Assembly (NCBI RefSeq): GCF_026571515.1
Contig: NW_026857783.1
Coordinates: 114,878 to 178,877, forward strand
Direction: 5' to 3'
DNA: 64,000 nt
DNA from: Ruditapes philippinarum
Taxonomy: Eukaryota
Position 1 is the stretch's first letter. Every line of letters starts with the position of its first letter. Position numbers and translations under genes: made by a program. Under the pieces are notes generated by a model that saw only the letters and a list, made by a program, of their open reading frames with translations, ran no database searches and had not been told where the DNA came from. Below are positions 9,758 to 61,888 of the stretch, piece by piece.

Positions 9758-9790
9758 CTGAAGAGTAATTTAAAAGTTGATTTATTTAAG

Positions 9791-10000
9791 CAATCAAAAC
9801 TAAGTGTTTTAAGTGTATCTGTTAGAGCAATTAAAACTAAGCGTTATAAGTGTATCTGTTAGGCCAATCAAAACTAAGCGTTATAAGTGTAACTGTTAAC
9901 CAATCAAAACTAAGTGTTACAAGTACTGTAAGAGCAATCAAAACTATGTGTTATAGGTAACTGTTAGAGCAATAAAAAGTAAACGTTATAAGTAACTTTT
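9791..10000. repeat. Tandem repeat with a unit of about 37 bp and about 6 copies, in the intron of ninjurin-like B
   Basis: Units caatcaaaactaagtgtt(a/t)taagtgtatctgttagagc follow one another. Confidence 0.8.
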
Positions 10001-12317: not shown

Positions 12318-12640
12318 TGAATTTGATAGTTCATTGAAAGTTAACGCCCACGTAATATAATTTACATAGTCATTGAAAGTTACCGCCCACGTAATATAAT
12401 TTACATTGTCATTGAAAGTTACCGTCACGTAATACTATTTACATATTCATTGAAAGTTACCGCCCACGTAATACTATTTACATATTCATTGAGAGTTAAC
12501 GCCCACGTACAATACTATTTACATACTTATTGAAAGTCAACGCCCACATTATATAATTTACATATTCATTGAAGGTTTACGCCTGCGTAATGCTGCTGTT
12601 CGTTTACATATTCATTGAAAGTTTAGGCCCGCGTAATGTC
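12318..12640. repeat. Tandem repeat with a 40-bp unit and about 8 copies
   Basis: The unit tcattgaaagttaacgcccacgtaatataatttacatagt recurs. Confidence 0.9.
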
Positions 12641-16765: not shown

Positions 16766-17233
16766 TCAGAGTTGAATTTTCGTTCCATTCATCAAAAGCA
16801 AGAATCGTTCGACAACCTTCGATTCTTTCGGAGATTCTGGATCTCCGTGTTCTTCTACCCCAAATCCAGTAATGAAAACATTAGAAACAATTATCAGAAG
16901 CACTAAAATATTTCCAAATTTGTCTAGTCTTTCGGAAAGAATTCGTCGGCTTTCATCCACTGGGTGATTCTCCTTTGGGGACTCCGCTAGGTGCTCTTGC
17001 AGCTTCTTTTCTATGGACCAAATAATCAACATGCATACTGTGAATACCACTTGCAGCACTATAGAACAACAAATGAACGCCAGGAGAATGAAGTAATATT
17101 TGTCCCCCTTGTCCATAGAGAGAAGAGATTTTAATTGAGACACATTGGCCATCAGGAGAGCCACGTCCATCAGTTGATGAATAAAGTTTCGTTTACCAAC
17201 ATAAATGTTGGGGGCACCGGTACTTTCCAAGTC
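16766..17233 (-). CDS. Ninjurin-like paralogue C, last exon (DLESTGAPNIYVGKRNFIHQLMDVALLMANVSQLKSLL...ILVLLIIVSNVFITGFGVEE...)
   Basis: Acceptor caatttcag on the minus strand (plus 17234-17242). This paralogue gives the best NINJ1 match: KRNFIHQLMDVALLMANVSQLKSL versus human KKSAAESMLDIALLMANASQLKAV, and LIIVSNVFITGFGV versus IIVVVNIFITAFGV. Stop codon at 16766-16768. Confidence 0.85.
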   Translation of the reverse strand, partial: DLESTGAPNIYVGKRNFIHQLMDVALLMANVSQLKSLLSMDKGDKYYFILLAFICCSIVLQVVFTVCMLIIWSIEKKLQEHLAESPKENHPVDESRRILSERLDKFGNILVLLIIVSNVFITGFGVEEHGDPESPKESKVVERFLLLMNGTKIQL

Positions 17234-17399
17234 CTGAAATTGAAAACATTGTTTTAAAATCGGAGTAAAGTATATAGAAAGAGAGAGTGTGCTCACAAAT
17301 TAATTACATCAAACGTAGAAAATCACTTTTCTGGTAAAAAAAAGAAAGATATTATTTCAAACCAATAAAAATCATCCAGTAAAACACTTTAACACCGTT

Positions 17400-23069: not shown

Positions 23070-23623
23070 TCAAGAACAGCTCTTGTCTAATTGCCTTAAA
23101 TCAATAGGTGCCAGATTTTGTTTGTGTATATTACAAGAATGCTTTTTTATATTTCCTGCAACTGACGACGTGTACTCGCACATCGGACATTTAAAAGGCT
23201 TCTCTTTGGTATGCACACGTTCATGCTGTTTTAAAATCGTAACATTGAAGAAACCTTTGCCACATTCTTTGCAAACAAACTTTCTATTCTTATCGAAATG
23301 CCTGCGTTTGTGTGACCGTAATGCAAACTTAGTCTTCAAAACTTTTCCGCAGATGTCACAAACAGACTCCTCTTGTTCATGAACCTTAATTTTATGCTGG
23401 TGTGCTGCTTTTGTAGTCTTAAATAGTTTTCCACAAATTTCACACGGGTGTATATGAAGAGCTTTCAACTCCTCTTCATTTTTACCACATGACAATTCTT
23501 TATGACTTTTGAAGTTTTCGTATTTGGTCATATGTTTGCCACAGGTTTCGCACTGGTAACTGTTCAGACGCCAAATACTATCCATGTGCTGTTTCTCACG
23601 TTTGTGCTTATAAAGGTCTCGAT
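23070..23623 (-). CDS. C2H2 zinc-finger protein, last exon (about 5 complete fingers plus the C-terminal half of a split finger); stop at 23070
   Basis: Repeated C-x2-C-x12-H-x3-5-H units (CEICGKLFKTTKAAHQHKIKVH, CDICGKVLKTKFALRSHKRRH, CKECGKGFFNVTILKQHERVH ...). Acceptor ctacatgcag in phase 1. The leading YRDLYKHKREKQH completes the finger begun by CPICGEEFEG in the upstream exon. Confidence 0.8.
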
Positions 23624-23689
23624 CTGCATGTAGAAAACATAGAAAAGTTATTAAACAATAGAATAAGTACAATCTGTGATCACTTTCTT

Positions 23690-24364
23690 TAGAAATAACA
23701 ATGTATGTTCTTAATTCTACAAATGTTCTTTGCAGTCATTCACTACTCAACATAATGTAATAACCATTTATGTTCTTAATTCTAGAGATGTTCTTTGAAG
23801 TCATTCACTACTCAACATAATGTAATAACCATGAATGTTCTTAATTCTAGAGATGTTCTTAACAAACATTCTCTACTCAACATAATATAATAACCATTTA
23901 TGTTCTTAATTCTACAAATGTTCTTTGAAGTCATTCACTACTCAACATAATGTAATAACCATGAATGTTCTTAATTCTAGAGATGTTCTTTACAAACATT
24001 CTTTACTCAACATAATGTAATAACCATGAATGTTCTTAATTCTAGAGATGTTCTTAACAAACATTCTCTACTCAACATAATATAATAACCATTTATGTTC
24101 TTAATTCTACAAATGTTCTTTGAAGTCATTCACTACTCAACATAATGTAATAACCATGAATGTTCTTAATTCTAGAGATGTTCTTTACAAACATTCTTTA
24201 CTCAACATAATGTAATAACCATGAATGTTCTTAATTCTAGAGATGTTCTTAACAAACATTCTCTACTCAACATAATGTAATAACCATTTATGTTCTTAAT
24301 TCTAGAGATGTTCTTTACAGACATTCACTACTCAACATAATGTAATAACCATTTATGTTCTTAA
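23690..24364. repeat. Satellite with a 65-bp unit (about 10 copies); proximal block of an array split by an insertion
   Basis: The unit ttctacaaatgttctttgaagtcattcactactcaacataatgtaataaccatgaatgttcttaa is repeated head to tail. The block starts 70 bp upstream of the ZNF exon acceptor and lies in the ZNF intron. Confidence 0.9.
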
Positions 24365-26357
24365 GGTGACAACGGAGTCAATTATCACTGAAAATACCTA
24401 AAATGAGATTTTTTGCTTAGTATATTTATCAACCTTTTCTGAACACATTCGTGATTTAATTTTGGAAGCAGTTAGTCCAAAAAATGTGTTTTTAAACGTT
24501 TTAAAACGGTACCTGTACTATTTTTATCTGCTATCGCGTAACCTGTCAATTATCGATAACGCTCCGCCCCCTGTTGAGGCATCAATGAGGGAAATCGGTA
24601 GTTCCATATATGCGTGAATTACCGGTCCATACTGGTCCATACTACTCGTAATTCATGTATCGTACAAATACCGTACATCTTTTATGAATATCGTCTACCT
24701 TTTATTTAGCCTTTTTTATAAAATAAGAAATTGTCGGCCAATGTACGTAACATAATGTATGAAACATAAAATTAAATAATTAAGCATAGCGACAAATCGC
24801 ACGACCACGGGGTTGATTAAAAATATAGTTGCTAAAATATCCATAATGTGTGAAAATAATTTGTCTGTCCCGTTAATCTGATAGATATTACATTGAGTTT
24901 ATGGACTTTTGTACGGATTCAAGGGCTTGCTTTACATTCAACCTCGTTTTCTAACAATGTCAAGTAAAACAACAACAAAAGCAGACAACATTTTTTATGT
25001 GAACGCCTATATGACTTGTGGTAAGGTCTCCCTGACAAATTTCTAAACCATTTTAGGTTGTCTAAGGATGATTATTTCTCTATGAATCAATAAAAAAAGA
25101 TAATAAAATAAATTATCAGTGAATGCTTTGAATAAATTGTTCGCTAGTAAATCGAACACAGTACTAATAAACCTGGGAGAAAGTTTGGAATTTATTGTAT
25201 ATCCCAGTAGAAACTGGATCTCTATGCCGTGCATAGATGATTTCCATGATAATAGAAGTCAAGAAGGTCAGATCATAATGATCGAGTGATACCTTTTATT
25301 TCTATTAAAATATGTGAAGCATTTATATCAATTTGGAGGAAAAAATATATAAAATCCCGTTCTTATTTGTACATCTACCATGGACTTTAAAATACTGTCA
25401 GAAGCTCAGTTTTTTTGTTATTTTAATTTATATTTTAACGGAATTTCATACACGAGTACACAGATAGAGTGACACTGGTATAATATAATAATAATGCTGA
25501 TGATAATAATAATAAACTTTAAATGTGAAACAATTAAATACCCCGCTAGCGGTGCACAAATACGTCCCATTTCCCCCCACCGAGTGCCTCAAATTTTACC
25601 GAAAGTCACGTGACATGTGCAACCGATACCAGACTAACGGTAAATCACGTTAAGATGTGAAGAAATTTCTGTTATAAACTGATATTAATCAGCAACTTTT
25701 TAATTGGTCAGATGTCACTGGGTCATAAAATGTTGTTAGTGTATGTTACCGCAACTTGTGACCCTCTCTGGTGCGATATTTGTGTATTATGTAATTATTT
25801 AGCGTGAAACGTAGGGGTCCGAGAGAGAACAGCCAATTTATGACACTTCGTTTGATGCGGATCGGACTAACTTTGAATCGGCATAACTTTTTTAATAATC
25901 AAGCAATTAACATGCGGTTTAAAGCACATGAAGGGGAATTCATTTACGGAGGGAACCGTATCAGGGATTTTTGTTTGCTCAATCAGCGACTTAATTATCT
26001 TTAATTACGTAATATGTATGGTGAAAAAAGTCGCATAAAATGTTTGACGTTACGTAATATTTTTTTGAGAAAAGATAGACAAAATTTGAGACACGGTTCC
26101 CCAGATATTATAAGTATGTTTATTTTCCAAAAGTTTGATGACACAAAAATAAAAAATGACTTTGATATGACGATTTAAAATTTTAGGATTTTTATTAAAA
26201 ATCAATCATTTACAAAGACATTTTTTTCAAATATGTTATTTTTTATGATGATCAACGACATTTAATGCACAAAGATTAAATAAATAACAATTATTACTAG
26301 AATAAGTTGGTTTAAATGACATTTATGTGATTACCACGGAAAGTGTCTGTTGTCACC
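24365..26357. mobile_element. A 1993-bp TIR element inserted into the satellite; it is flanked by a TTAA target-site duplication and has the 9-bp TIR GGTGACAAC...GTTGTCACC
   Basis: Left junction ...atgttc TTAA|ggtgacaacggag. Right junction ctgttgtcacc|TTAA ttctacaaatg. The satellite unit continues in register across the insertion, with the TTAA of the unit gttcTTAAttcta duplicated. No intact transposase ORF is present, so the element is non-autonomous. Confidence 0.75.
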
Positions 26358-27325
26358 TTAATTCTACAAATGTTCTTTGAAGTCATTCAATACTCAACAT
26401 AATGTAATAACCATTTATGTTCTTAATTCTACAAATGTTCTTTGAAGTCATTCACTACTCAACATAATGTAATAACCATGAATGTTCTTAATTCTAGAGA
26501 TGTTCTTAACAAACATTCTCTACTCAACATAATATAATAACCATTTATGTTCTTAATTCTACAAATGTTCTTTGAAGTCATTCACTACTCAACATAATGT
26601 AATAACCATGAATGTTCTTAATTCTAGAGATGTTCTTTACAAACATTCTTTACTCAACATAATGTAATAACCATGAATGTTCTTAATTCTAGAGATGTTC
26701 TTAACAAACATTCTCTACTCAACATAATATAATAACCATTTATGTTCTTAATTCTACAAATGTTCTTTGAAGTCATTCACTACTCAACATAATGTAATAA
26801 CCATGAATGTTCTTAATTCTAGAGATGTTCTTTACAAACATTCTTTACTCAACATAATGTAATAACCATGAATGTTCTTAATTCTAGAGATGTTCTTAAC
26901 AAACATTCTCTACTCAACATAATGTAATAACCATTTATGTTCTTAATTCTAGAGATGTTCTTTACAGACATTCACTACTCAACATAATGTAATAACCATT
27001 TATGTTCTTAATTCTACAAATGTTCTTTGAAGTCATTCACTACTCAACATAATGTAATAACCATGAATGTTCTTAATTCTAGAGATGTTCTTTACAAACA
27101 TTCTTTACTCAACATAATGTAATAACCATGAATGTTCTTAATTCTAGAGATGTTCTTAACAAACATTCTCTACTCAACATAATATAATAACCATTTATGT
27201 TCTTAATTCTACAAATGTTCTTTGCAGTCATTCACTACTCAACATAATGTAATAACCATGAATGTTCTTTATTCTACAGATGTTCTTTACAGATATTCAC
27301 TACTCAACATATTGTATAACAATGT
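26358..27325. repeat. Satellite with a 65-bp unit (about 15 copies); distal block
   Basis: Same unit as 23690-24364. Confidence 0.9.
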
Positions 27326-36605: not shown

Positions 36606-37017
36606 CTTTTTTTTTTATGACAAATTTATCCCGAAGTATTATCCTAACATTTTAAATGAAGTAGATCTAATATACAGTGTAGACTATGATAATTTAGTTT
36701 TGAAATATGTAATATTGTTTATTTTAAAATTATTTCATTTATCATCTCATGACTTTATATTTCGTTAATTCAACTCTAATAAGATCTTATTCACCGACTC
36801 GAGTATTATAGTTGAAGATACGATTGCTATGCCTACATCCAGTTAAGTGCCTGCATAGTTTATATGGTACGAACATCTGTGTGCACGATTTTTCCTAATA
36901 CAGTTCAGTTGTTACAATATAGGGGAACAAAAAAATTGGATTGTGAATTGCAAATTATTGTACAACTGTTGCTCACTACGAATTCATGGTTCCTCACATA
37001 AAAGAATCCAAAGTCTA

Positions 37018-37095
37018 TGTCGAGATTCGAACCCACAGTGGGGAGGGGCAAGCGGTTTGAAGTCAACGACCTTAACAACTCGGCCACGGACGCCT
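37018..37095 (-). pseudogene. tRNA-like segment (degenerate tRNA or SINE head) on the minus strand
   Basis: The minus strand reads GGCGTCCGTGGCCGAGTTGTTAAGGTCGTTGACTTCAAACCGC...CCCCACTGTGGGTTCGAATCTCGAC. It has a D-loop-like GCCGAGTTGTTAAGG and T-loop TTCGAAT, but I could not form a proper acceptor or T stem (CCCAC precedes GTGGG rather than following it). It is therefore not a functional tRNA. Confidence 0.3.
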
Positions 37096-37544
37096 CTTTT
37101 CGAAAATAGTAGACTGCTATATGTGTATTTACCTGATACAAAATTGATTAACGGACAGTTTCTTGCGGAAAGCAGGGGGAGCACCGGAGCAACGTACGTA
37201 TACCTGGCTCATAGTATGGTATTTCTTACATGATTAACGGAGCAGACATTAACATGAGAAACGGCATAACAAATGTCATTGTTATTAGACATCAAAACAA
37301 AAAATGGGTTTCAATTAACAGTTTTATTAAAAAATATTCAATACCTTTAGTCAACAAGAAATGCTTAAGAACATTTATCACAATGAACAAAATTAATTAG
37401 AAATACAATGTATGTTAAGAATTTTTATGACGCAAGCATTAACAACTCCCTAACATACAAAGTTAACATTATTTTCAAGATAAATGCAAACTATACACTT
37501 TATAGATAATGATATACAAACACAGCACATGTTACCGCCGCAAG

Positions 37545-37915
37545 AAAGTTCCTTATAAATGCATATACCTCTATAGGTGACGTATTCCATTATCCCTGGA
37601 ATAATTTTAAAATAGTAAATGCACACTCTCTTTGCGACGTTATTCATACACTCAAACTCGTGAACATTTCAAAATAGGTAATGCACACTCTCTCGGTGAC
37701 GTCATCTATGCACTCTAGACTCATTGACATTATCAAAATAGTTAATGCAAACTCTCGAGCTCTCGGTGACGTCATCTATGCACTCTAGACTCATGGAAAA
37801 TATCAAAATAGTTCATGTATTCTCCAGATGACGTTATTCATACAGTCATGAATAATTTTAAATACTAAATGCACACTCTTTAGGTTACGTAATTCATACA
37901 CTGATAATAATTTCA
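37545..37915. repeat. Tandem repeat with a unit of about 61 bp and about 6 copies; two units carry the palindrome TGACGTCA
   Basis: Units aaatagtaaatgcacactctct..g.gacgt.at.catacactc...tcaaaat follow one another. TGACGTCA occurs at 37697-37704 and 37767-37774. The array lies immediately 3' of the ASB-like gene. Confidence 0.85.
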
Positions 37916-37996
37916 AAATGGCATAATCTTCTTACTGCTTTGCAGTGAATTGAAACAATCACTTATTTTGTTTATAAACTCGCACCTGATTTAGAG

Positions 37997-39649
37997 TCAT
38001 TCCACATTGTTGATGTACTTTTTCAAAGCTATCGGTATTGACAATTCAACCACAGCCGTGGATTTCCATTCACATGCTTGCAAAATACTTAAGCGACAAA
38101 GAACTTTTAAGTTCCAAACACTAGAAGATCGTTTTTGCATCTCGTCTTTGCATATTTTAAAAAGCTTCCTTTGTATATCATTGGTCGGTTTCCCGCCAAA
38201 TTCGATCTTACACGCGCTACTGACAGACGTCAATGTCATATTACCAAGGAGTGTATTCACTATTTCATTAACATACTCCAGTTGTGCAGCTTCGTCTGAT
38301 TTTGTTATCTTTTCAAACTTTTCAGAGTGCATTAAAATTTCGTCACAAAATGTGTTTAACGGAAACTTTCCGGACAAATTTTCATTGGGATCAGAACCGT
38401 TCTGGATCAACAGTCTAAAAGTAGTGATACTGCGTTCATCCAATCCAAGTACTATAGAAACTTTCAGAAATGCATGTAAAGCGTTCCCTATGAAACCATT
38501 TGGTCCGTCACCAACGCTGCCCTTCACTGAAAGATCGGAACCGTGGCGTAGTAACGTCTCCGTGCATTTGGTGATAAAACGTCTAATATTTGTGACGTCA
38601 TCTTCAAAATGTCTTACTAATGTTAAAACATTGTCATACAAGCAGTGGAGCGCGGACGAGTACGCTAATCGTCCAAATGCTGTTTGGATGTGCAATGCTT
38701 CGTGTTCCTTCTCAAATTTGACCTCATCAAAGTTCGGATCCACTCCTGCGTTCAAGAGAACAACCATGCACGCTGCTATATATGGATACGACTTTCCGAA
38801 ATCCGACGCGGGTGTATGGCTTAGTAAGCTATACAATGGATAAGTACGAAATGGAATATCAGACACTGGATTTTGTTTATACTTCAACAAGACGGAGGTA
38901 ACTGTCAAAAGAGATTCGTACCATTCCTTTTTAAATGATAGACTGTACGAGTATAGTACATGGTAAAGGTTCATACCACTGAAAAGTGAAGTAAGTGAAG
39001 GATTGCATCTTAAAAGAACATCTAGGCACTCTGCATTTGCTAATTTCAAGGCAGCGCCTACTGCAGACTTAAGGTCGTCCGACGTTGTCCTTTCTTTAAG
39101 CAATAAGCGTAGAGCAGACGGCGAGTTACTGGCACATGCTGCGGATAAGTGATTTTCTGAACCAAACTCCAGTTTGGTTTTAACTGACGACACATCCAAA
39201 ATAGATCTTACACACGAAGTGTGCCCACTTAGAGCGGCTACATCTAGCGGTGTCACCATACTTGTCCCGCCAGGGGAATGTAGTGGCGTCTCCGTCGGGG
39301 GATTCACCCACTTGAATTTACTTTTCTTTGTAGAATAATCACGTGGTCTCTCTTGTAAAATCATACTTACAATTGTTCTACTTCCAAAGTTTGCTGCCAG
39401 ATGTATATAAGAATGAAATTTTGGTTCGTGTGGCGGTTTAAAATGACCGAGGGCAAATATGATTCCGACGGCCTCAATGTTTTCTGACATAATGGCATGA
39501 TGTAAAATATCGTAGCCATCTTTATCTGTCCAGGAAAGCAACTGATCTCTGTCGCACTTTTCGAAACATCCTCTTAGTCTAGAGACATCTTCTGTAGTAT
39601 TTATTTTCAAATAAAGCGTAGATTTCAAGTCGTTTATTTTCGTCGACAT
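37997..39649 (-). CDS. Ankyrin-repeat and SOCS-box (ASB-like) protein in a single uninterrupted ORF of about 550 aa; an alternative upstream ATG lies at 39679
   Basis: The uninterrupted ORF is 560 codons. It has several ANK-like repeats (DGYDILHHAIMSENIEAVGIIFALG; TPLDVAALSGHTSCVRSIL; LKSAVGAALKLANAECLDVLLRCNP; YPYIAACMVVLLNAGVDPN; GNALHAFLKVSIVLG..LLIQNGSDPN). The C-terminus matches the SOCS-box BC and Cul boxes (SVWNLKVLCRLSI...LSIPIALKKYI). No introns are needed. Confidence 0.8.
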   Translation of the reverse strand: MSTKINDLKSTLYLKINTTEDVSRLRGCFEKCDRDQLLSWTDKDGYDILHHAIMSENIEAVGIIFALGHFKPPHEPKFHSYIHLAANFGSRTIVSMILQERPRDYSTKKSKFKWVNPPTETPLHSPGGTSMVTPLDVAALSGHTSCVRSILDVSSVKTKLEFGSENHLSAACASNSPSALRLLLKERTTSDDLKSAVGAALKLANAECLDVLLRCNPSLTSLFSGMNLYHVLYSYSLSFKKEWYESLLTVTSVLLKYKQNPVSDIPFRTYPLYSLLSHTPASDFGKSYPYIAACMVVLLNAGVDPNFDEVKFEKEHEALHIQTAFGRLAYSSALHCLYDNVLTLVRHFEDDVTNIRRFITKCTETLLRHGSDLSVKGSVGDGPNGFIGNALHAFLKVSIVLGLDERSITTFRLLIQNGSDPNENLSGKFPLNTFCDEILMHSEKFEKITKSDEAAQLEYVNEIVNTLLGNMTLTSVSSACKIEFGGKPTNDIQRKLFKICKDEMQKRSSSVWNLKVLCRLSILQACEWKSTAVVELSIPIALKKYINNVE

Positions 39650-40877
39650 GATTGTGCGCACTACAATTATTTGAAGCACATTGAACAGTAAAGAACTATC
39701 CCTCGATATCTTTCAAGCGTCATTGACTACGCAATAAAACGATATATTCCAGATGTATGCAATTGCCTTTTAGCCTTAGCCAATCTCTTTAAAGTTTGCT
39801 TCAACAGTTCTGTTGATTTTTTCATTCATTGCTTGATGTGAATGATCAACACGAGTAATTCCAACTCTATTTAGAACGAAAACTATGAAAATTCCATAAT
39901 CTACACTAGATCGATAAGCGTTTATTAAACATACAACTAATCAAGCGTCTACGAATCTAAACAAGTTGACCAGAAGGATAGTTCTTTACATGTATTATTA
40001 CGCAAGATAGAAATAAAATAACATAAATATTTAAGCCTTACCATGCACAGTATGTACCGTAATTCATGAATATGTAGGGGGAGATGGATTCTGTATTATT
40101 ATCATATTAAAAACATCTGCAGTGATGCTTTAAATCGACTTGACCTACATTTGCTTTTAGTTATACACAGATTTTAACTGCTTTTATGTTTATTTTATGA
40201 TTTTATATTTTCATTATAAATGGGTGTAACTGTCAGCCTACATGTATATATCCCGAGGCACCGTCACAACCGTGTAGTATTATATCCTTATTTTAAATTA
40301 TTAATTTTGAATAAGTGTATAGATCTATATATATCTGATGCAAAAAAAAATATGTGAATTTTAAAAAAAAGTTTGCTTCCAAAATGCTTGTATGATATAA
40401 ATATGGTAATTTATTGCCTTAAAGCGAATGGCGCATGCACAAAATTGCTAAACGGATAAAACTCTACTTAAAATAGCAAAATAATATTTTATTTATATAA
40501 ATACATTATTCATGTGTATTAAATAACAGAGACATTCTATGTTACAACTTTTTCGGGAATCAACCATATAATAATGGAACCAATATAATTTTACCGTTGA
40601 TTAATTTTTTAAAAATATTTCATAACTTTAACGCCCTTATAATATATTATATATACTAAGGGAATTGATCTTTCAGGTGAACGCCCTAGCTTACACTAAA
40701 TATTTTACGTAAATACTTGAATAGTGATCAATAAAACATTCTCACTAAAAATGAATATGTTTATACTTAATTAGTAACCGTTATTTGGAACACACTTGTG
40801 ATAAGTATATACATTGTACATTAATACTTGAACAGTGATCATTCAAGATCTTTAGAGAATAATTTAATTTGACTGTT

Positions 40878-42394: not shown

Positions 42395-42600
42395 ATGATT
42401 GATTGATTGATTGATTGATTGGTTGGTTGGTTGATTGCTTGCTTGCTTGATTGATTGATTGATTGATTGACTGACTGACACACTGACACACTGATTGGTT
42501 TACTGATTGGTTGATTGATTGATTGAGTGAGTGAGTGAGTGGTTGACTTATTGATTAATTGATTGATTGATTGATTAAGTGAGTGGGTGAGTGAGTGAGT
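42395..42600. repeat. (CAATCAAT)n/(CACT)n compound microsatellite in RERG-like intron 3
   Basis: The region reads gattgattgattggttggttgattgcttgcttg...gagtgagtgagtg. Confidence 0.9.
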
Positions 42601-48660: not shown

Positions 48661-51660
48661 TTCTTCTTCTTCTTCCAGTATAAGAGCCGGGATCCAAAAG
48701 GAACGTAATGAGGCTCTGCGAAACTATGTACATGGTGAGATGGAACACTCTTCCTCTCAGCGATAAAAGTTGTAAAAACTGATAAAAATTTATTTACAGA
48801 GACGTTGTGAAGTGAATTTAGATGGAGGCCGGCAGGCGCGCGCGGAAAGCATCCAACGTTTCCGCGGCGGTGACTGTTGATGCCAGGCCATTCCAGTCAA
48901 CAATTGTCCTGGGGAAGAAGGTATTTGTATACATCCTGCCAGTGGTGCGTTCTTGGTAGAAACGTATACGTGTTCTACTGTCACTGGTGTTCTTCTTGGA
49001 TTGGTTACTCAGTGGTAGGTACTTGTCCTTGGGGATGTCTACTAGGTCATGTTGAATGCGATAGAGCATGCCTAACCTTGCTTCCTTCCTTCTCTGTTGG
49101 AGGGTGTTCCAATCCAGGCTCCTCAGCATTCCTGTCATACATCCGGGTGTTCTGGATTTATAGTCATTTTTGACAAAACTGGCTGCACTTTTCTGGATCT
49201 GCTCAAGTGAATCTATGTGTGTCTGAAGATGAGGATCCCAAACCGTTGCTGCATATTCAAGACCTGGGCGTACAAAAGTTGCTGCTTTCAGTTGTGGTGT
49301 ACAATCCTTCATGTTTCTCCTCACAAATCCCAGTGTTCTGTTTCCTTTGGCAGCTACATTCTGTATGTGCTTGTCCCATGAGAGGTTGTTGGAGACACTT
49401 ACACCAAGGTATTTGCTGTGGTCCACTGATTGCAGGACTTGGCCATGAAGTATATATTGTTCCAGTGCTTCAAGATCCTGCTGCAGCCTTGCCTTGCCTT
49501 GTCATTTGTACTCTTGATGACCCTGTACATGAGGCTGTCGTCCGCAAAGAGTCGGATGTCAGATGATGTGCAGTCAGGCATGTTATTTATGAAGGCCAGG
49601 AATAAAAGTGGACCTAGTACGGTTCCCTGGGGAACGCCAGATATAACATCATCTTGGTCAGACTTGGTGCCTTCAAGGACTACCTGTTGCTTGCGGTTAC
49701 TCAGGAAGGTTTTGATCCACTGGCTTAAGGGACCTCTCACGCCATAGAAATCTAGCTTGTAGAGGAACTTTGTCGAACGCCTTCTCGAAGTCGAGTAGAA
49801 TGGCGTCTACTTTGTTACCCGCTGAGAGATACTTCGCGATGGTGTCAACTGTTGTTAAAATTTGAGTTTCGCATGAGCGACGTTTCCTGAAACCATGCTG
49901 GTTGTCTCTCAGTATATGGTTGGTGTCAAAGTGTGACATTATATTACTGTGGACAATGTGTTCCAGGATCTTGCAGGTGATCGATGTAAGTGAGACGGGC
50001 CTATAGTTGGCCGGGATGTGTGTATCTCCCTTTTTGTAGATGGGTACTACATTTGCATCTCTCCAGTCCTGAGGTACTTCAGAAGAGTCTAGGGAAAACT
50101 GGAAAAGGCGGGTAAGTATTGGTGCCAGTTCAGCAGCAGCTAAATGGAGGAACCGGGTCGGAATCTCATCAGGGCCTGCAGCTTTAAATTTATGGCAGTT
50201 AAGATTTTGGAGTAATTTCCGTACTCCTGGTTCCCTAACTGTAATAGATGGCATGCTGGGATGGCTACTTGGTCCCTTGTCAGGTAAGTTCTCTGTGGGT
50301 TCTCGGGTGAAGACAGAGCTGAACTGCTGGTTCAGTATACTGGCCTTGCTCTTGCTGTCACTCCGAATGAAACCAGCAATATTCTTCAGGGGCGCTACAC
50401 CAACTATTTCCTGACCCTTGCTCTTGATGTAGGAATAGAACTTCTTTTTGTTGGCTGGACTACTGTCACTGATGATGTCTTGCATATACTGCCGGCTTGC
50501 TCGTCTTGTGTGCCACTGGACTTCTTTTTGCAGTCGCTTGTAACGATCTCTGTCTCGTTTGGAGTTTGATTTCCTAGCTTTCTTAAAGGCTTTTTGTTTC
50601 CGTCGAATGCTTCTTTTGATGGTGGAATTCATCCATGGATTTGTATATTTAGAACAAGTGAGTTTAGATGGTACTCTCTTGGTTATAATTTCTGTGATGT
50701 TTGTTTTAAAATCATGCCACATCGATTCAATGTCTGTGTATGGGGTGTTCTGGAATTCGGTTGCTAGAGTACGGGTGTCTTCTTTGATGGCATTAAGGTC
50801 CGCCTTCTTCCATAGTAGTATTTTCCGTCTTGCTGGGCGTGGATGGTATGTTTGGATCGAAGTGTCGAGGAGCACAATGTCATGATCGCTGTTCCCTATC
50901 GAGGGCATAGGTTTACATCTCATCTTGAAGCTGGAGTGGGTGGTCAGGATCAGATCTAGTATCTTGTCTTTCCTGGTTGGAAAATCCACTTATTGTTCTA
51001 GGTTGGAGTCAGCTATCATATCTAGGAAGTGTTTGCTGGTGCTCTGTGGGTACTGGGATCCAGATATATCAAGAGTTTTCCAGTCTATGTCTGGTAAATT
51101 GAAGTCGCCCCCAATAATAAATATGCTGTTCTTCGATTTGGACTTCAAACTGCTAATCTCTTCTGTTGATTTTGAGAGGTATTCAGAATCAGTCCTGTTT
51201 GGTGGTCTGTAGTAGGTTGCTTTTGTGATGTTTTTGGATCCTGACTTGATGGTGCCACTAACCAGTTCTGTGTTACTGCTCTTGTAGATGTCGTGTAGCA
51301 GGAGATGTTGTTTTGCCGCTATAAGGACTCCACCATGGGGGTTTTCAGGTCTGTCTCTCCGCTGTATGTCATAGCCAAGGTCACTTGGCAGTATTTCGCT
51401 AGAGGCAACTTGACTGTCCAGCCAGGTTTCTGTGCCTAAAATAACATCTGGGTCGCAGTCTAGTATGATTGACTCAAGGAGTTTCCCTTTCTTACGTAGG
51501 CTCTGGAAGTTTATATTAAGAAGGCGTAGCATGTTTTTCTTCGCGGTGGATTTGGCTGAGGTTTGCTGAGGCTTAGGTGAGGAGGTAATTATGTTTGCAC
51601 CAGAGAGGTTGAAGGTAGAGTTGCTGTGTTCAGTACTCACGCTAGATCTGGACTGCATTG
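48661..51660 (-). mobile_element. Non-LTR retrotransposon (APE endonuclease plus reverse transcriptase; CR1/L2/RTE-like), decayed, about 3 kb
   Basis: Collinear minus-strand ORFs. The 222-aa ORF at 50990-51658 has APE-type endonuclease motifs (ILGTETWLD, GGDFN). The 430-aa ORF at 49697-50989 and the 113-aa ORF at 49399-49740 hold the RT, with FRKRRSCETQI...LDFEKAFDKV and VPQGTVLGPLLF...FADDSLMY. The 202-aa ORF at 48818-49426 is the C-terminal domain. Adjacent ORFs are separated by one stop and two frameshifts. A (GAA)5 microsatellite tail lies at the element's 3' end (plus 48661-48675). Confidence 0.85.
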
Positions 51661-55949: not shown

Positions 55950-58235
55950 CTAAATAGTAAATACCCAAATATACCCAATTACACCCAAATATACCCAAAT
56001 ATAGCAATATTCATTTTTGTTTGTATAAAATACAGATTATAATTTGAAAATGAATCAATATTAATAAAAATAATATTACTTAGTCAGCTATAACTTTCAT
56101 TCATTCCGTTAAAATGGGCAGTTTAAATGTTGTAAGAAAATAAACTTGTGACATTTGCTTATCTAGGTTCATTACTGAATATACTTGCAAATTAAAATAA
56201 AGATATGATAATATTTGTTGTCTACATTTAATTTTTAGCTCACCTGAGCATGCTCAGGGTGAGCTTTTAGGATCGATGATTGTCCGTCGTCCGTCCGTCC
56301 GTCGTCCGTTCACATTTTGTTGTTAACACTCTAGCTGTCGCATTTTTGCCTCAATCATCATCAAACTTGGTCAGGATGCTTATCTAGTTGATAGCTCAGA
56401 TGAGTTCGAACATGGGTCATCTCGGATGAAAAACTAGGTCACAAGAGCTAAAAATAGAAAAACCTTGTTAACACTCTAGAGGTCTGGTCACATTTTTGCC
56501 TCAATCATCATCAAACTTGGTCAGGATGTTTGTCTAGGTGATAGCTCGGATGAGTTCGAACATGGGTCATCTCGGATGAAAAAGTAGGTCACCGGAACTA
56601 CAAATAGAAAAACCTTGTTAACACTCTAGCGGTCACATTTTTGTCTCAATCATCATCAAACTTGGTCAGGATGCTTGTCTAGGTTACAGATAGCTCGGAT
56701 GAGTTCGAACATGGGTCATCTCAGATGAAAAACTAGGTCACCGGAGCTAAAAATAGAAAAACCTTGTTAACACTCCAGCGGTCACATTTTTGCCTCAATC
56801 ATCATCAAACTTGGTCAGGATGCTTGTCTAGGTTACAGATAGCTCGGATGAGTTCGAACATGGGTCATCTCGGATGAAAAAGTAGGTCACTGGAGCTAAA
56901 AATAGAAAAACCTTGTTAACACTCTAGCAGTCACATTTTTGCATCAATCATCATCAAACTTGGTCAAGATGCTTGTCTAGGTGATAGCTTGGATGAAGTT
57001 GAACATGAGTAATCCTGGATGAAAACCTAGGTCACCGGAGCTAAAAATATAAAAACCTTGTTAACACTCCAGCAGTCACATTTTTGCCTCAATCATCATC
57101 AAACTTGGTCAGGATGCTTATCTAGTTGATAGCTCGGATGAGTTCGAACATGGGTCATCTCGGATGAAAAACTAGGTCACAAGAGCTAAAAATAGAAAAA
57201 CCTTGTTAACACTCTAGAGTAGGTCACAATTTTGCCTCAATCATCATCAAACTTGGTAAGGATGTTTGTCTAGGTGATAGCTTGGATGAGTTGGAACATG
57301 GGTCATCTCGGATGAAAAACTAGGTCACAGGAGCTAAAAATAGAAAACTCTTGTTAACACTCTAGTGGCTCTTGTTTTGATCCAAATATCCTGTAAATTG
57401 GTCTGAAAGTTTGTTTTGATGATTTCTAAGTCAAGTTCGAACATGGGTCATCTTGGATGAAAAACTAGGTCACACCGCCCAAATATGGAAAAACCTTGTT
57501 AACATTCTAGTGGTCACATTTTCGACTCAATTATCATCAAACTTGGTCAGGATGCTTGTCTAGGTAATTGCTCGGATGAGTTCGAAATCGCATGTGAAAC
57601 TAGGTCACTGGAGCTAAAAATAGAAAAATCTTGTTAACACTCTAGTTGCTACTGTTTTGATCCAAATATCCTGGAAATTGGTCTGAAAGTTTGTTTTGAT
57701 GATTTCTAGGTCAAGTTTGAATATGGGTCACCTGGGTAAAAAACTAGGTCACACTGCTCAAATATGGTTAATCCTTGTTAACACTGTAGTGGTCACATTT
57801 TTCACTCATCTGTCATGAGACTTGGTCAGAATGCTTGTCTAGGTAATTGTTTGGATGAGTTTGATGGGTCAGGTGAGCGATCTAGGGCCATCATGGCCCT
57901 CTTGTTTAGAGTATTATTAAAATTTTGTTGAAATTTCATACAAGTGTCCATCACATTATTTTTTTTTTGAAAATTTAATATAGCTTTAATGAAGTGTACT
58001 GTACTGTATTTGGGTATATTTTGGTTCAAAACACAATGATAGGAAAATGTATATTTGGGTATGTTTGTCTTTGTTTGATCAATCTCAGTGAAAGTGTATA
58101 TTGTAATTCATAATTAAAACAGCACTTTTTTTTGTATAAAACATTCATTTTTGGTATATTTGAGCAATATTTGGGTATATTTGGGCAATATTGGCAATAT
58201 TTAGGTGTATTTGGGTATATTTGGGTATTTCATGC
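55950..58235. mobile_element. Foldback-type element of about 2.3 kb: TIRs of about 80 bp flank a 150-bp tandem array of about 11 copies; it lies in PARP4-like intron 1
   Basis: Left TIR aaatacccaaatatacccaattacacccaaatatacccaaatatagcaatattcatttttg. Right TIR caaaaatgaatgtt..gagcaatatttgggtatatttgggcaatatt..ggtgtatttgggtatatttgggtatttc. The internal array at 56300-57890 repeats the unit ttgttaacactctagcggtcacatttttgcctcaatcatcatcaaacttggtcaggatgcttgtctagg..gatagctcggatgagttcgaacatgggtcatctcggatgaaaaactaggtcaccggagctaaaaatagaaaaacc. A perfect 12-bp-stem hairpin gctcacctgagcatgctcagggtgagc at 56238-56265 precedes the array. Confidence 0.8.
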
Positions 58236-59151
58236 TGCCAACTATTTCTATGTGTCAAAAATTATTACAGCCACTACTCTATATATAGAGGATATTTGTT
58301 TGTTTCAGTGTAAGATCGAAAAATATTTCACCGAGTGAACACCAGATGCAATATTTTCCACGAGTGGCGTAGCCACGAGTGAAAATATAATAGCTGGGGT
58401 TCACTAGTGAAATATTATTTGATCTTACATGTAAAACAAACAAATTTTCTGTTTATTTCATGATTTTTTAACGATTTTTACACCATTTTACTGATTTTTG
58501 CCGCGTAACGTCATGCTCTTATCTTCATGACGTCATGAAATAATGACGTCACAATGTTGAAGCAAAATATAATTCCATGATTATTTTTAGATTTTAGATG
58601 TTTTTCAGCACAACGTTCGTAAATATTTACAAACTACAGTTATCACGTACATTTTTTATTATGATTGACTACAATTCCGCTGAAAAAAACATTCATTAAT
58701 GATAAATATTTTATTTTTACGCCAAATATAGTTCGGCTACTGTGAAATTATATTTGGTAATCATTACTGTGAAATTATCAGAATATAATTAACCGTTATA
58801 ATTCAGTAATCTACTGCAAAACATGTAATAAAATGTCATAACTCAGAAGTTTTAGGCATTGTAAAACAGTATGACTGTCACATACAAGATACAGATCCAT
58901 AGCTCCATACTAAGTTTAAGGTCACATTTAGAGGTCAAAAGTATCTAGTAAATGGTATCTATAACTTGTGTCAACTCATTATTTTTGTTATTTCTTTATA
59001 TATTGTGAGATTCTGTAGGAAAAAAAGACAGCATGTAAATTGTTTTATCAAAACCTGTTTAAGCTTGACATCATTAAATTTTAGAGCCTGTAAATTTACT
59101 TAATAGTTAATGCCTTGACAAATTGCTCTTTTTTTTATTTATTTTATGTAG

Positions 59152-59350: not shown

Positions 59351-59524
59351 GTAACTTTTATCTTAAGCAAGTTATACTATTAAACTTTTGACAGAATAAA
59401 AATTTTGTGCATCAGTTGTTTTTTTTTGACATGCTATCATGCTATTATATTCTTGATTGTTGAGAATTTTCTTCCTACTGAAAAAATGTCATACTTTAAA
59501 ACTTTGGAGTTTATGCTTGAGCTC

Positions 59525-61586
59525 AGACATGATGTTGTACTGGAGAACTGACATGATGTTGTACTGGAGAACTGACATGATGTTGTACTGGAGAACTGAC
59601 ATGATGTTATACTGGAGATCTGACATGATATTATACTGGAGGTAAGACATGATGTTATACTGGAGGTCTGACATGATGTTATACTGGAGGTCTGACATGA
59701 TGTTATACTGGAGGTCTGACATGATGTTATACTGGAGGTCTGATATGATGTTATACTGGAGATCTGAGATGATGTTATACTGGAGTTCTGACATGATGTT
59801 ATACTGGAGGTCTGACGTGACATTATACTGGAGTTCTGACATGATGTTAGACTGGAGGTAAGACATGATGTTATACTGGAGGTCTGAGATGATGTTATAC
59901 TGGAGATCTGACATCTTTTATACTGGAGTTCTGACATGATGTTATACTGGAGGTCTGACATGATATTATATTGGGATTCTGATATGATGTTATACTGGAG
60001 TTCTGATATGATGTTATACTGGAAGTCTGACATGATGTTATACTGGAGGTCTGACATGATGTTATACTGGAGGTCTGACATGATGTTATACTGGAGTTCT
60101 GACATGATGTTATACTGAAGGTCTGACATGATGTTATACGGAGATCTGACATGATGTTATACGGGAGATCTGACATGATGTTATACGGGAGGTCTGACAT
60201 GATGTTATACGAGAGGTCTGACATGATGTTACATTAGAGGTCTGACATGATGTTATACTGGAGGTCTGACATGATGTTATACTGGAGGTCTGACATGATG
60301 TTATACTGGAGGTCTGACATGATGTTATACTGGAGTTCTGACATGATGTTATACGGGAGGTCTGACATGATGTTATACGGGAGGTCTGACATGATGTTAT
60401 ACTGGAGGTCTGACATGATGTTATACGAGAGGTCTGACATGATGTTACATTAGAGGTCTGACATGATGTTACATTAGAGGTCTGACATGATGTTATACTG
60501 GAGATCTGACATGATGTTATACTGGAAGTCTGACATGATGTTATACTGGAGGTCTGACATGATGTTATACTGGAGGTCTGACATGATGTTATACTGGAGT
60601 TCTGACATGATGTTATACTGAAGGTCTGACATGATGTTATACGGGAGATCTGACATGATGTTATACGGGAGATCTGACATGATGTTATACGGGAGGTCTG
60701 ACATGATGTTATACGAGAGGTCTGACATGATGTTACATTAGAGGTCTGACAATGATGTTATACGGGAGGTCTGACATGATGTTATACGGAGGTCTGACAT
60801 GATGTTATACGAGAGGTCTGACATGATGTTACATTAGAGGTCTGACATGATGTTACATTAGAGGTCTGACATGATGTTATACTGGAGGTCTGACATGATG
60901 TTATACTGAAGGTCTGACATGATGTTACACTGGAGTTCTGACATGATGTGATACTGGAGGTCTGACATGATGTTATACGAGAGGTCTGACATGATGTTTA
61001 TACGGGAGGTCTGACATGATGTTACATTAGAGGTCTGACATGATGTTATACTGGAGAACTGACATGATGTTAGATAGGAGATCTAACATAATGTCATACT
61101 GGAGAACTGACATGATGTTAGACAGGAGATCTGACATGATGTTATACTGAAGGTCAGATATGATGTTAGACAGGAGATCTGACATAATGTTTTACTGGAG
61201 GTCTGACATAATGTTATACTGGAGGTCTGACATAATGTTGTTCTGGAGGTCAGACATGATGTTGTTCTGGAGATCTGACATGATGTTGTACTGGAGAACT
61301 GACATGATGTTGTACTGGAGAACTGACATGATGTTGTACTGGAGAACTGACATGATGTTATACTGGAGGTCTGACATAATTAGACATAATGTTGTTCTGG
61401 AGATCTGACATGATGTTGTACTAGAGAACTGACATGATGTTGCACTGGAGAACTGACATGATGTTATACTTGAGGTCTGACATAATGTTATACTGGAGGT
61501 CTGACATAATTAGACATAATGTTGTTCTGGAGATCTGACATGATGTTGTACTGGAGAACTGACATGATGTTGTACTGGAGATCTGA
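59525..61586. repeat. 24-bp minisatellite of about 86 copies spanning about 2.06 kb, in PARP4-like intron 2
   Basis: The unit gacatgatgtt(a/g)tactggag(g/a/t)(t/a)ct recurs with subfamilies TATACTGGAGGTCT, TGTACTGGAGAACT and TATACGGGAGATCT. All supplied ORFs within it (MMLYWRSD.. and MSDLQYNI..) are repeat translations. Confidence 0.95.
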
Positions 61587-61888
61587 CAAGAGAAAACTGA
61601 CACAAATAAGTACAATGGGCTTGTAGCGACAAGTTATTGGCAACAAGTTATTTAAAAAAAAATGCTATTTGTAGCTCAGTTTTAACATCTTGATATTGAA
61701 AAGCTGTAAACTTTAAATTGACGGTTTCAGTTTCAAAGTAGGACAAAACCATTTAGTAAGTTAAGGGCCTAGAGATAAATGTCTTTTGGAATCACAGTAA
61801 TCTGTTTATATAATCAGTAGCTCTGGTTTCATTAAAAAAATGAATATTTATCTTATTATAACAACCATTGTTTAAAACTTTCTTTCAG

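Follow-up and report, generated by a model that had tools for sequence, protein, structure and literature searches.

A single-exon ankyrin-repeat and SOCS-box gene in the clam Ruditapes philippinarum, a presumed cullin-5 adaptor of a mollusc and annelid family

The stretch of Ruditapes philippinarum DNA analysed here (64 kb, hereafter the window) carries on its minus strand a single-exon protein-coding gene, preceded by a conserved non-coding motif and a Ras-family neighbour and followed by a tandem array. The features referred to below are these:

37997..39649, minus strand: single-exon coding sequence of 550 codons plus stop for an ankyrin-repeat/SOCS-box protein, delimited by the open frame, its ATG, an upstream stop and orthologues
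38120..39520, minus strand: ankyrin-repeat solenoid (residues ~44-510) made up of about ten helix-hairpin repeats (Pfam, AlphaFold2, Foldseek)
38012..38119, minus strand: C-terminal SOCS box, residues 511-546 (PF07525 sub-threshold, family profile, predicted fold)
39690..39732, minus strand: conserved bipartite motif GTAGTCAATGACGCTT ... GGATAGTTCTTT, 42-84 nt 5' of the ATG
43944-43878, 43059-42984 and 42382-41903, minus strand: three exons of a Ras-family GTPase gene, the upstream neighbour (Pfam Ras, 3.7e-14)
37597..37917, no strand assigned: degenerate tandem array of about five copies of 56-70 bp (TRF, self-BLAST and ACGT anchors)

The original prediction was of an uninterrupted open reading frame of 560 codons, and such a frame does run without interruption through 37997..39679 on the minus strand when counted from a GTG; its first ATG, at 39649 (MSTKIN...), gives a product of 550 aa. 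This ATG has an A at -3, as in the Kozak context, there is an in-frame TGA 5' of it at 39715-39713, and both the length and the start of the 550-aa product match R. philippinarum and Mercenaria proteins. No longer open frame exists in the window, the runner-up (430 aa) lying within a LINE, and at a stop-codon frequency of 0.075 a frame this long would arise somewhere in the window with a probability of ~1e-14. GC content is 0.40 inside the frame versus 0.28-0.30 in its flanks. Scans of the whole window for tRNA and Rfam families returned no matches. The possibility that the frame belongs to the upstream Ras-family gene as one of its exons was rejected because Mercenaria annotates two separate genes and because of the in-frame stop before the ATG.

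The exons of this Ras-family gene are 82-90% identical at the nucleotide level to the Ras/Roc gene that lies upstream of the orthologue in Mercenaria, with identical order and strand; the neighbour is a synteny anchor common to Mercenaria. An apparent tandem paralogue in Mercenaria was discarded, as the match belonged to Mya (locus L002). The sole non-coding block that can be aligned with Mercenaria, Mya and two clam contigs (L006 and L010) is the bipartite motif upstream of the ATG, which is probably a core-promoter or 5'-UTR element; a 13-mer within it is unique in the window, where 0.03 matches would be expected.

The multiple ankyrin repeats of the original prediction are borne out by Pfam on the sequence alone, with Ank_2 (1.7e-11), Ank_3 (1.8e-10), Ank (5.4e-7) and Ank_4 (2e-5) all above their cut-offs. 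The AlphaFold2 model of the full-length protein (pLDDT 89.4, pTM 0.83) is an ankyrin solenoid, and its top Foldseek matches are AnkB and ankyrin-1 (E ~5e-8). Family signature motifs lie within the solenoid (GMNLYHVLYSYS, FRTYPLYSLLSH, DPNFDE and AFGR..YSSALHCL); YPLYSLL, DPNFDE and GR..SAL are invariant in the family, and a β-hairpin is inserted at residues 110-132.

A C-terminal SOCS box had also been proposed, and here the evidence is of a different kind. The motif is present at residues 511-546, but the sequence of this copy alone is sub-threshold for the Pfam model, since PF07525 scores 17.9 bits (E 0.0038) against a gathering score of 23.5; it is the family, profile and fold comparisons that uphold the assignment. 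SOCS_box is matched in 19 of 44 relatives (best E 8.6e-7), and when a C-terminal profile was compared with the PDB, the top nine matches (among them SOCS2, at E 0.0017, ASB7, ASB9 and SOCS4) were all SOCS boxes, each aligned to the profile at its SOCS box. The C-terminal model consists of three helices (pLDDT 93) and superposes on SOCS2, SOCS1, ASB8, ASB9 and SOCS4 with an rmsd of 0.9-2.1 Å, and on ASB7 with 3.9 Å. Its nearest PDB folds are SOCS/VHL-box proteins in 49 of 50 cases, mostly at 0.9-2 Å and most of them solved together with Elongin B/C, with Foldseek E-values (0.5-7) that for a 50-residue model are non-significant taken alone. The boxes of SOCS2 and SOCS4 are the top sequence and structure matches for the final ~40 residues, as can be seen by comparing SOCS2 (SLQHLCRLTI...LPLPTRLKDYL) with the family consensus (WSLKRLCRLEI...LPLPMALKTEI); SOCS proteins, however, bind substrate through an SH2 domain, in place of which the clam protein has ankyrin repeats.

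Within the box, the BC box is NLKVLCRLSI (residues 512-521), whose L, C and final I fit (A/P/S/T)LxxxCxxx(A/I/L/V); at position 1, for which the consensus gives A/P/S/T, this copy has N512, and relatives show S, T, N or P. The Cul5 box, VVELSIPIALKKYI, fits φxxLPφPxxφxx(Y/F)(L/I) everywhere but at the first proline of its LPxP core, in place of which stands S537. At this place the R. philippinarum orthologue reads VVELPIPIALKKYI, LPLP is the consensus of the family, and position 537 is P in P0001 and in most of the 44 relatives that were aligned. Either N512 or S537 could weaken binding. Together with the sub-threshold Pfam score, these substitutions are what would speak for an ankyrin protein whose SOCS-like helices have, in this copy, lost the recruitment of Elongin B/C and Cul5, leaving a protein that serves as scaffold or inhibitor instead of as an E3 adaptor. 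We regard such a loss as very unlikely: L514, C518, L536 and P539 are each at least 90% conserved across the 44 sequences, the C-terminal model is both confident and SOCS-like, and the first proline is replaced in other members (by A, H, D, N or S) that keep the rest of the box intact, which suggests that the position is tolerant. The reading as an ASB-type protein, presumably a Cul5 substrate adaptor, holds, with the ankyrin repeats significant by themselves and the SOCS box supported by the family, the PDB profile and the fold.

Two database proteins can be regarded as direct orthologues or as the same gene in a close relative, corresponding in length and start codon, and neither entry has a functional name. 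The R. philippinarum uncharacterized protein LOC132724177 is 96% identical without indels, its 20 amino-acid substitutions including P537S, and Mercenaria mercenaria LOC123552323 is 84% identical. Against Mercenaria dN/dS is 0.056; the gene is under purifying selection, and a ratio of ~0.06 would be typical for an old, constrained gene. About 60 full-length molluscan relatives of 545-620 aa were found, with further members in chiton and annelids, so that the uncharacterized orthologue family ranges through named bivalves, gastropods, a chiton and annelids. An exhaustive HMM search covered 1.84 billion representatives; among the best 150 matches listed, many of them without a name, the named full-length ones were all from molluscs or annelids and there was no vertebrate ASB orthologue. 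In a word-indexed profile search (A4) family members scored at least 272 bits and were followed by generic ankyrin proteins at no more than 152 bits, with no ASB among the latter and no annelid members among the matches. A further search, made with the central signature region, yielded eight nameless fragments and nothing else, and did not refine the phyletic range. A second molluscan subfamily is represented by P0043, P0045 and P0062. A literature search found no paper on this orthologue family or on molluscan ASB genes.

The lack of introns had been taken to suggest a retrogene or membership in a lineage-specific expansion, and as a recent event neither is sustained. In each of the eight relatives whose loci were compared, one exon contains the whole coding sequence; the eight comprise five bivalves (Mercenaria, Mya, the related clam L006, Sinanodonta and Mytilus), the abalone Haliotis, a chiton (Liolophura) and an annelid (Capitella). 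As this structure is common to molluscs and an annelid, the gene is no recent retrocopy, and the intronless state predates the mollusc-annelid split. A recent processed copy of an intron-containing ASB parent, or a recent expansion member, would account for the intronless coding sequence, and retroposition machinery is present in the genome, since a LINE that has endonuclease and reverse-transcriptase domains lies at a distance of 9 kb and a SINE-like sequence of tRNA origin is found 0.9 kb downstream. Yet besides the shared exon structure, the Ras-family neighbour is kept in Mercenaria, no second copy of the gene was found within the 64-kb window, the homologue search gave a single R. philippinarum match, and the low dN/dS likewise speaks against recent origin. 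The poly(A) remnant and target-site duplication expected of retroposition were also sought and neither was found: the first A-run of at least 7 comes 1.38 kb 3' of the stop codon, and the direct repeats that flank the gene are unconvincing, being AT-rich matches with 76-84% identity. A recent origin by retroposition or expansion is therefore scarcely credible.

An older event is harder to judge. Vertebrate ASB genes are multi-exonic, and the single-exon state is uniform through the family, as it would be if a multi-exon ASB gene had been retroposed before the mollusc-annelid split and the copy maintained since as a functional gene. Against this, no intron-containing parent was identified, the nearest matches outside the family being the generic ankyrin proteins mentioned above, and ancestral absence of introns or their stepwise loss fits the data equally well. 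The idea is also hard to test because any poly(A) or target-site traces would be long decayed. We consider ancient retroposition unlikely, though less firmly so than the recent kind; the single-exon structure itself is ancient.

It is probable, then, that the locus is a functional, single-exon gene of a venerid clam whose product combines about ten ankyrin repeats with a C-terminal SOCS box and is presumed to act as a Cul5 adaptor. The closest known systems are the vertebrate ASB proteins, of which ASB9, ASB7, ASB8 and ASB11 have been solved with Elongin B/C. As in the clam protein, ankyrin repeats at the N-terminus precede a SOCS box of three helices that contains BC-box and Cul5-box motifs; the clam C-terminal profile and model match the boxes of ASB7, ASB8 and ASB9, and its ankyrin region can be aligned to those of ASB9 and ASB11. 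Compared with the solved ASBs, however, the clam solenoid is longer (about ten repeats in a protein of 550 aa), and in contrast to vertebrate ASBs the clam protein's family has its own invariant motifs, the β-hairpin insertion and a single-exon coding sequence, with no one-to-one orthology detected.

By this analogy the product most likely serves a cullin-5 ubiquitin ligase as a subunit that recognizes the substrate. We infer from vertebrate ASB and SOCS proteins that Elongin C/B would be the docking site of the BC-box helix, NLKVLCRLSI, that the Cul5 box VVEL[S/P]IPIALKKYI would recruit Cullin-5 with Rbx2, and that the ankyrin solenoid would hold a putative substrate for ubiquitination, the strongly conserved non-canonical motifs YPLYSLL, DPNFDE and GR..SAL being a likely contact or scaffold surface. 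It is tempting to go further and to define a spiralian-specific (mollusc and annelid), ancestrally intronless family of CRL5 receptors that would be marked by the signature GMNxYHV, YPLYSLL, DPNFDE and GR..SAL, would carry in heterodont bivalves a promoter-proximal element (GTCAATGACGCTT...GGATAGTT), would act on a lineage-specific substrate and would have no vertebrate ASB orthologue. We offer this wider proposal tentatively, as a possibility somewhat short of even.

This is an ordinary gene of an already known protein type, and the results leave the current understanding of cullin-RING ligases unchallenged. Their use lies in annotation: a set of entries that mollusc and annelid genomes list as 'uncharacterized protein' can be given the label of ASB-type SOCS-box proteins and presumed receptors for CRL5 substrates, which form a distinct and strongly constrained family with a single-exon coding sequence. 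It is also worth noting that an intronless gene in an intron-rich genome is not by itself a sign of a recent retrogene; here it was the comparison of orthologues that decided the question.

Immediately 3' of the gene the original prediction had placed a 61-bp tandem array with CRE-like palindromes. The array is real, and 61 bp is indeed its mean spacing, but it is degenerate, begins ~80 nt past the stop codon (spanning 80-400 nt downstream) and has the perfect TGACGTCA in two copies only, at 37697 and 37767, the others reading TAACGTCA, TTACGTAA, TAACGTCG and ATACGTCA. TRF delimits it at 37609-37817 (3.2 copies, 81% matches); self-BLAST and the ACGT anchors widen it to ~37597-37917, with spacings of 56, 62, 70, 62 and 57 bp. 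It lies before the first AATAAA 3' of the gene, at 37328, and is therefore probably within the 3' UTR. The 3' flanks of the genes in Mercenaria, Mya and L006 showed no such array, and nothing was found in support of a regulatory role for the CRE-bearing repeats. A derivation of the array from the coding sequence, by way of a common 12-mer (GTGACGTCATCT), was dropped because chance alone should produce about one exact repeat of that length in 4 kb of sequence. The window as a whole holds about a dozen tandem arrays, this one among them.

The uninterrupted 560-codon reading frame of the original prediction is borne out on the minus strand (39679 to 37997), counted from a GTG. The first ATG, at 39649 (MSTKINDLK...), has A at -3 and is preceded by an in-frame TGA at 39715-39713, so the biological product is 550 aa; the annotated Ruditapes philippinarum protein is identical to it in length and start, and the Mercenaria mercenaria protein corresponds. 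No longer open frame exists in the window (the runner-up, of 430 aa, is part of a LINE), the probability of such a frame anywhere in the window being ~1e-14 at a stop-codon frequency of 0.075 per codon, and its GC content is 0.40 versus 0.28-0.30 in the flanks.

The predicted combination of ankyrin repeats and a SOCS box proved right, by several routes. Pfam models Ank_2 (1.7e-11), Ank_3, Ank and Ank_4 pass their cut-offs, while the SOCS_box match at residues 521-556 of the 560-aa frame (17.9 bits, E 0.0038) falls below the gathering score of 23.5, so that on the window protein alone only the ankyrin half is recovered by Pfam and the SOCS box needs independent support. Among full-length relatives, 19/44 match PF07525 at E ≤ 0.01 (best 8.6e-7). 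When the C-terminal 50 residues of 38 relatives were made into a profile and run against all PDB sequences, the nine top matches were all SOCS-box proteins aligned exactly on their SOCS boxes (SOCS2, four sequences with E 0.0017-0.0019; ASB7; ASB9, three sequences; and SOCS4), with PCMTD1 and ASB8 ranked lower. AlphaFold2 models the C-terminal 50 residues as three helices (pLDDT 93.3), and 49 of the 50 closest PDB folds belong to proteins with a SOCS or VHL box, the majority solved together with Elongin B/C, including SOCS2, SOCS1, ASB8, ASB7, ASB9, SOCS4, VHL and PCMTD1; rmsd is mostly 0.9-2 Å across 36-40 residues; taken alone, the Foldseek E-values of such a short query do not reach significance. 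Modelled at full length (pLDDT 89.4, pTM 0.83), the protein forms a single long ankyrin-type solenoid of ~ten helix-hairpin repeats, into which a β-hairpin is inserted at residues 110-132, and the three SOCS-box helices come after the solenoid; the PDB structures nearest to this model are repeats of AnkB and ankyrin-1 (E ~5e-8).

The BC box (NLKVLCRLSI) and Cul5 box (VVELSIPIALKKYI) depart from their consensus motifs at two residues only: BC-box position 1 is Asn, and Ser537 (codon TCA, 38039-38041, minus strand) takes the place of the first proline in the LPxP core. The family consensus at this core is LPLP; position 537 is Pro in most of the 44 relatives aligned, with A, H, D, N or S in other members. 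Whereas the window copy has Ser, LOC132724177, an uncharacterized Ruditapes philippinarum protein and the closest relative, reads LPIP; Ser537 could distinguish alleles or species and could affect Cul5 recruitment.

Domains, fold and conservation are direct results of this analysis. By analogy, the window protein is best read as an ASB-type substrate receptor of a Cullin-5 RING ligase, whose SOCS box would engage Elongin B/C plus Cul5/Rbx2 while its ankyrin solenoid would present substrate for ubiquitination; we infer binding partners, activity and substrate from what is established for SOCS-box proteins.

The window protein is 96% identical to LOC132724177 (20 substitutions, zero indels); judged by dN, this 4% protein divergence may reflect a sister species rather than an allele. 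Identity declines across molluscs as follows.

Identity of relatives to the window protein
Mercenaria: 84%
Mya: 66%
Unionids: 45%
Mussels, oysters, scallops and abalone: about 40%
Other gastropods: 30-37%

Almost all relatives are 545-620 aa long. Searching 1.84 billion representatives exhaustively by HMM adds the chiton Liolophura and four annelids (Ridgeia, Paralvinella, Capitella and Helobdella); named full-length matches listed are molluscs or annelids only, many matches being nameless and the family range uncertain. In the profile search, family members score at least 272 bits and the next matches, generic ankyrin proteins with no ASB among them, at most 152; neither search yielded a one-to-one vertebrate ASB orthologue among the matches listed. 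An invariant signature lies mid-solenoid (GMNxYHV, (S/T)YPLYSLL, DPNFDE and GR..(Y/F).SAL), and the gene is under strong purifying selection (dN/dS = 0.056 versus Mercenaria, with dS close to saturation). Members are already in public annotations of related clams, labelled 'uncharacterized protein', and the window gene is an uncharacterized addition to a known protein type; the most interesting outcome, though modest, is that these ASB-like proteins form a conserved family, apparently spiralian and ancestrally without introns, that has signature motifs of its own.

The intronless structure had suggested a retrogene or a member of a lineage-specific expansion. For every orthologue with a genomic locus retrieved, gene range equals 3 × (residues + 1), so the coding sequence is a single exon in Mercenaria, Mya, Sinanodonta, Mytilus, a related clam (L006), Haliotis rubra, Capitella teleta and Liolophura; direct translation gives one unbroken frame each in the window, Mercenaria, Mya, Sinanodonta, Mytilus, L006 and Haliotis. 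The single-exon coding sequence is thus ancestral in the family and older than the mollusc-annelid split. The same-strand upstream neighbour is moreover a Ras-family gene in the window and Mercenaria alike.

43944-43878, 43059-42984 and 42382-41903, minus strand: Ras-family GTPase gene of at least three exons, gene order conserved with Mercenaria

A (TGAT)n microsatellite of ~45 copies (42396-42576) adjoins the 5' edge of its last exon. By tblastn the window holds no second copy of the ASB-like gene. Nor were the usual traces of retroposition found: the first AATAAA sits 668 nt past the stop codon, the 1.38 kb downstream of that codon contain no run of seven or more A, and direct repeats flanking the gene are only AT-rich ones, 76-84% identical. 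A recent retrogene or expansion is therefore not supported, and any retroposition may have predated the mollusc-annelid split.

A bipartite motif, GTAGTCAATGACGCTT - 12-18 nt - GGATAGTTCTTT, lies 10-85 nt 5' of the start codon in the window, Mercenaria, two other clam contigs and Mya (66% protein identity), with flanking DNA outside it unalignable among these clams.

39690-39732, minus strand: motif in the window
9950-9991 of L001: motif in Mercenaria
1521-1561 of L006 and ~487-528 of L010: motif in the two other clam contigs
From 5941 of L002: motif in Mya

Within it an upstream ATG (ATGACGCTT) starts short uORFs of variable length. Short, promoter-proximal and conserved in heterodont bivalves, the motif could be a control element of the core promoter, transcription start or 5' UTR.

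The predicted 61-bp array of CRE-like palindromes is real yet unremarkable. TRF reports it at 37609-37817 (3.2 copies, 81% matches), and self-BLAST with ACGT anchors extends it to about 37597-37917, as roughly five degenerate copies spaced 56-70 bp apart (mean 61), two with a perfect TGACGTCA. Rather than immediately 3', it starts ~80 nt past the stop codon and, as the first poly(A) signal comes after it, probably belongs to the 3' UTR. It does not recur elsewhere in the window, and neither a similar array nor a TGACGT or ACGTCA half-site occurs in the 1-kb 3' flanks of Mercenaria and Mya or the 0.8-kb 3' flank of L006; we find no sign of function. About a dozen other tandem arrays, mostly stronger, lie in the window, and TGACGTCA itself is enriched window-wide (7 perfect sites versus 0.54 expected from dinucleotide shuffles), two of the seven being the repeat copies and two lying in a separate cluster at 58.5 kb, where three CRE-like sites (TAACGTCA, TGACGTCA, TGACGTCA) fall within ~50 bp (58505-58551).

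A tRNA-like sequence at ~37013-37092 (minus strand), 0.9 kb downstream of the gene, has an A-box and B-box (TGGCCGAGTTGTTAAGG ... GGTTCGAATCTCG) and resembles the head of a tRNA-derived SINE; neither ARAGORN nor Rfam reports it, and the window has no second copy. Minisatellite arrays are abundant (296-702, 9789-9993, 12326-12591, 23694-24364, 26357-27324, 56320-57861 and 59511-61588), including a 65/195-bp family whose two sites are separated by 2 kb, a 145-bp array with 10.6 copies, and ~86 repeats of a 24-bp unit, within which the ORFs at 59437-60224 are probably repeat artefacts. The LINE, three adjoining ORFs of 222, 430 and 202 aa, overlaps a GC-rich, AT-skewed stretch at 48-52 kb. Other coding features are as follows.

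48818-51658, minus strand: fragmented non-LTR retrotransposon (LINE) with AP-endonuclease and reverse-transcriptase domains
16766-17296, minus strand: Ninjurin-family ORF (Pfam 9.6e-21)
23070-23672, minus strand: C2H2 zinc-finger ORF (zf-H2C2_2 9.5e-16)
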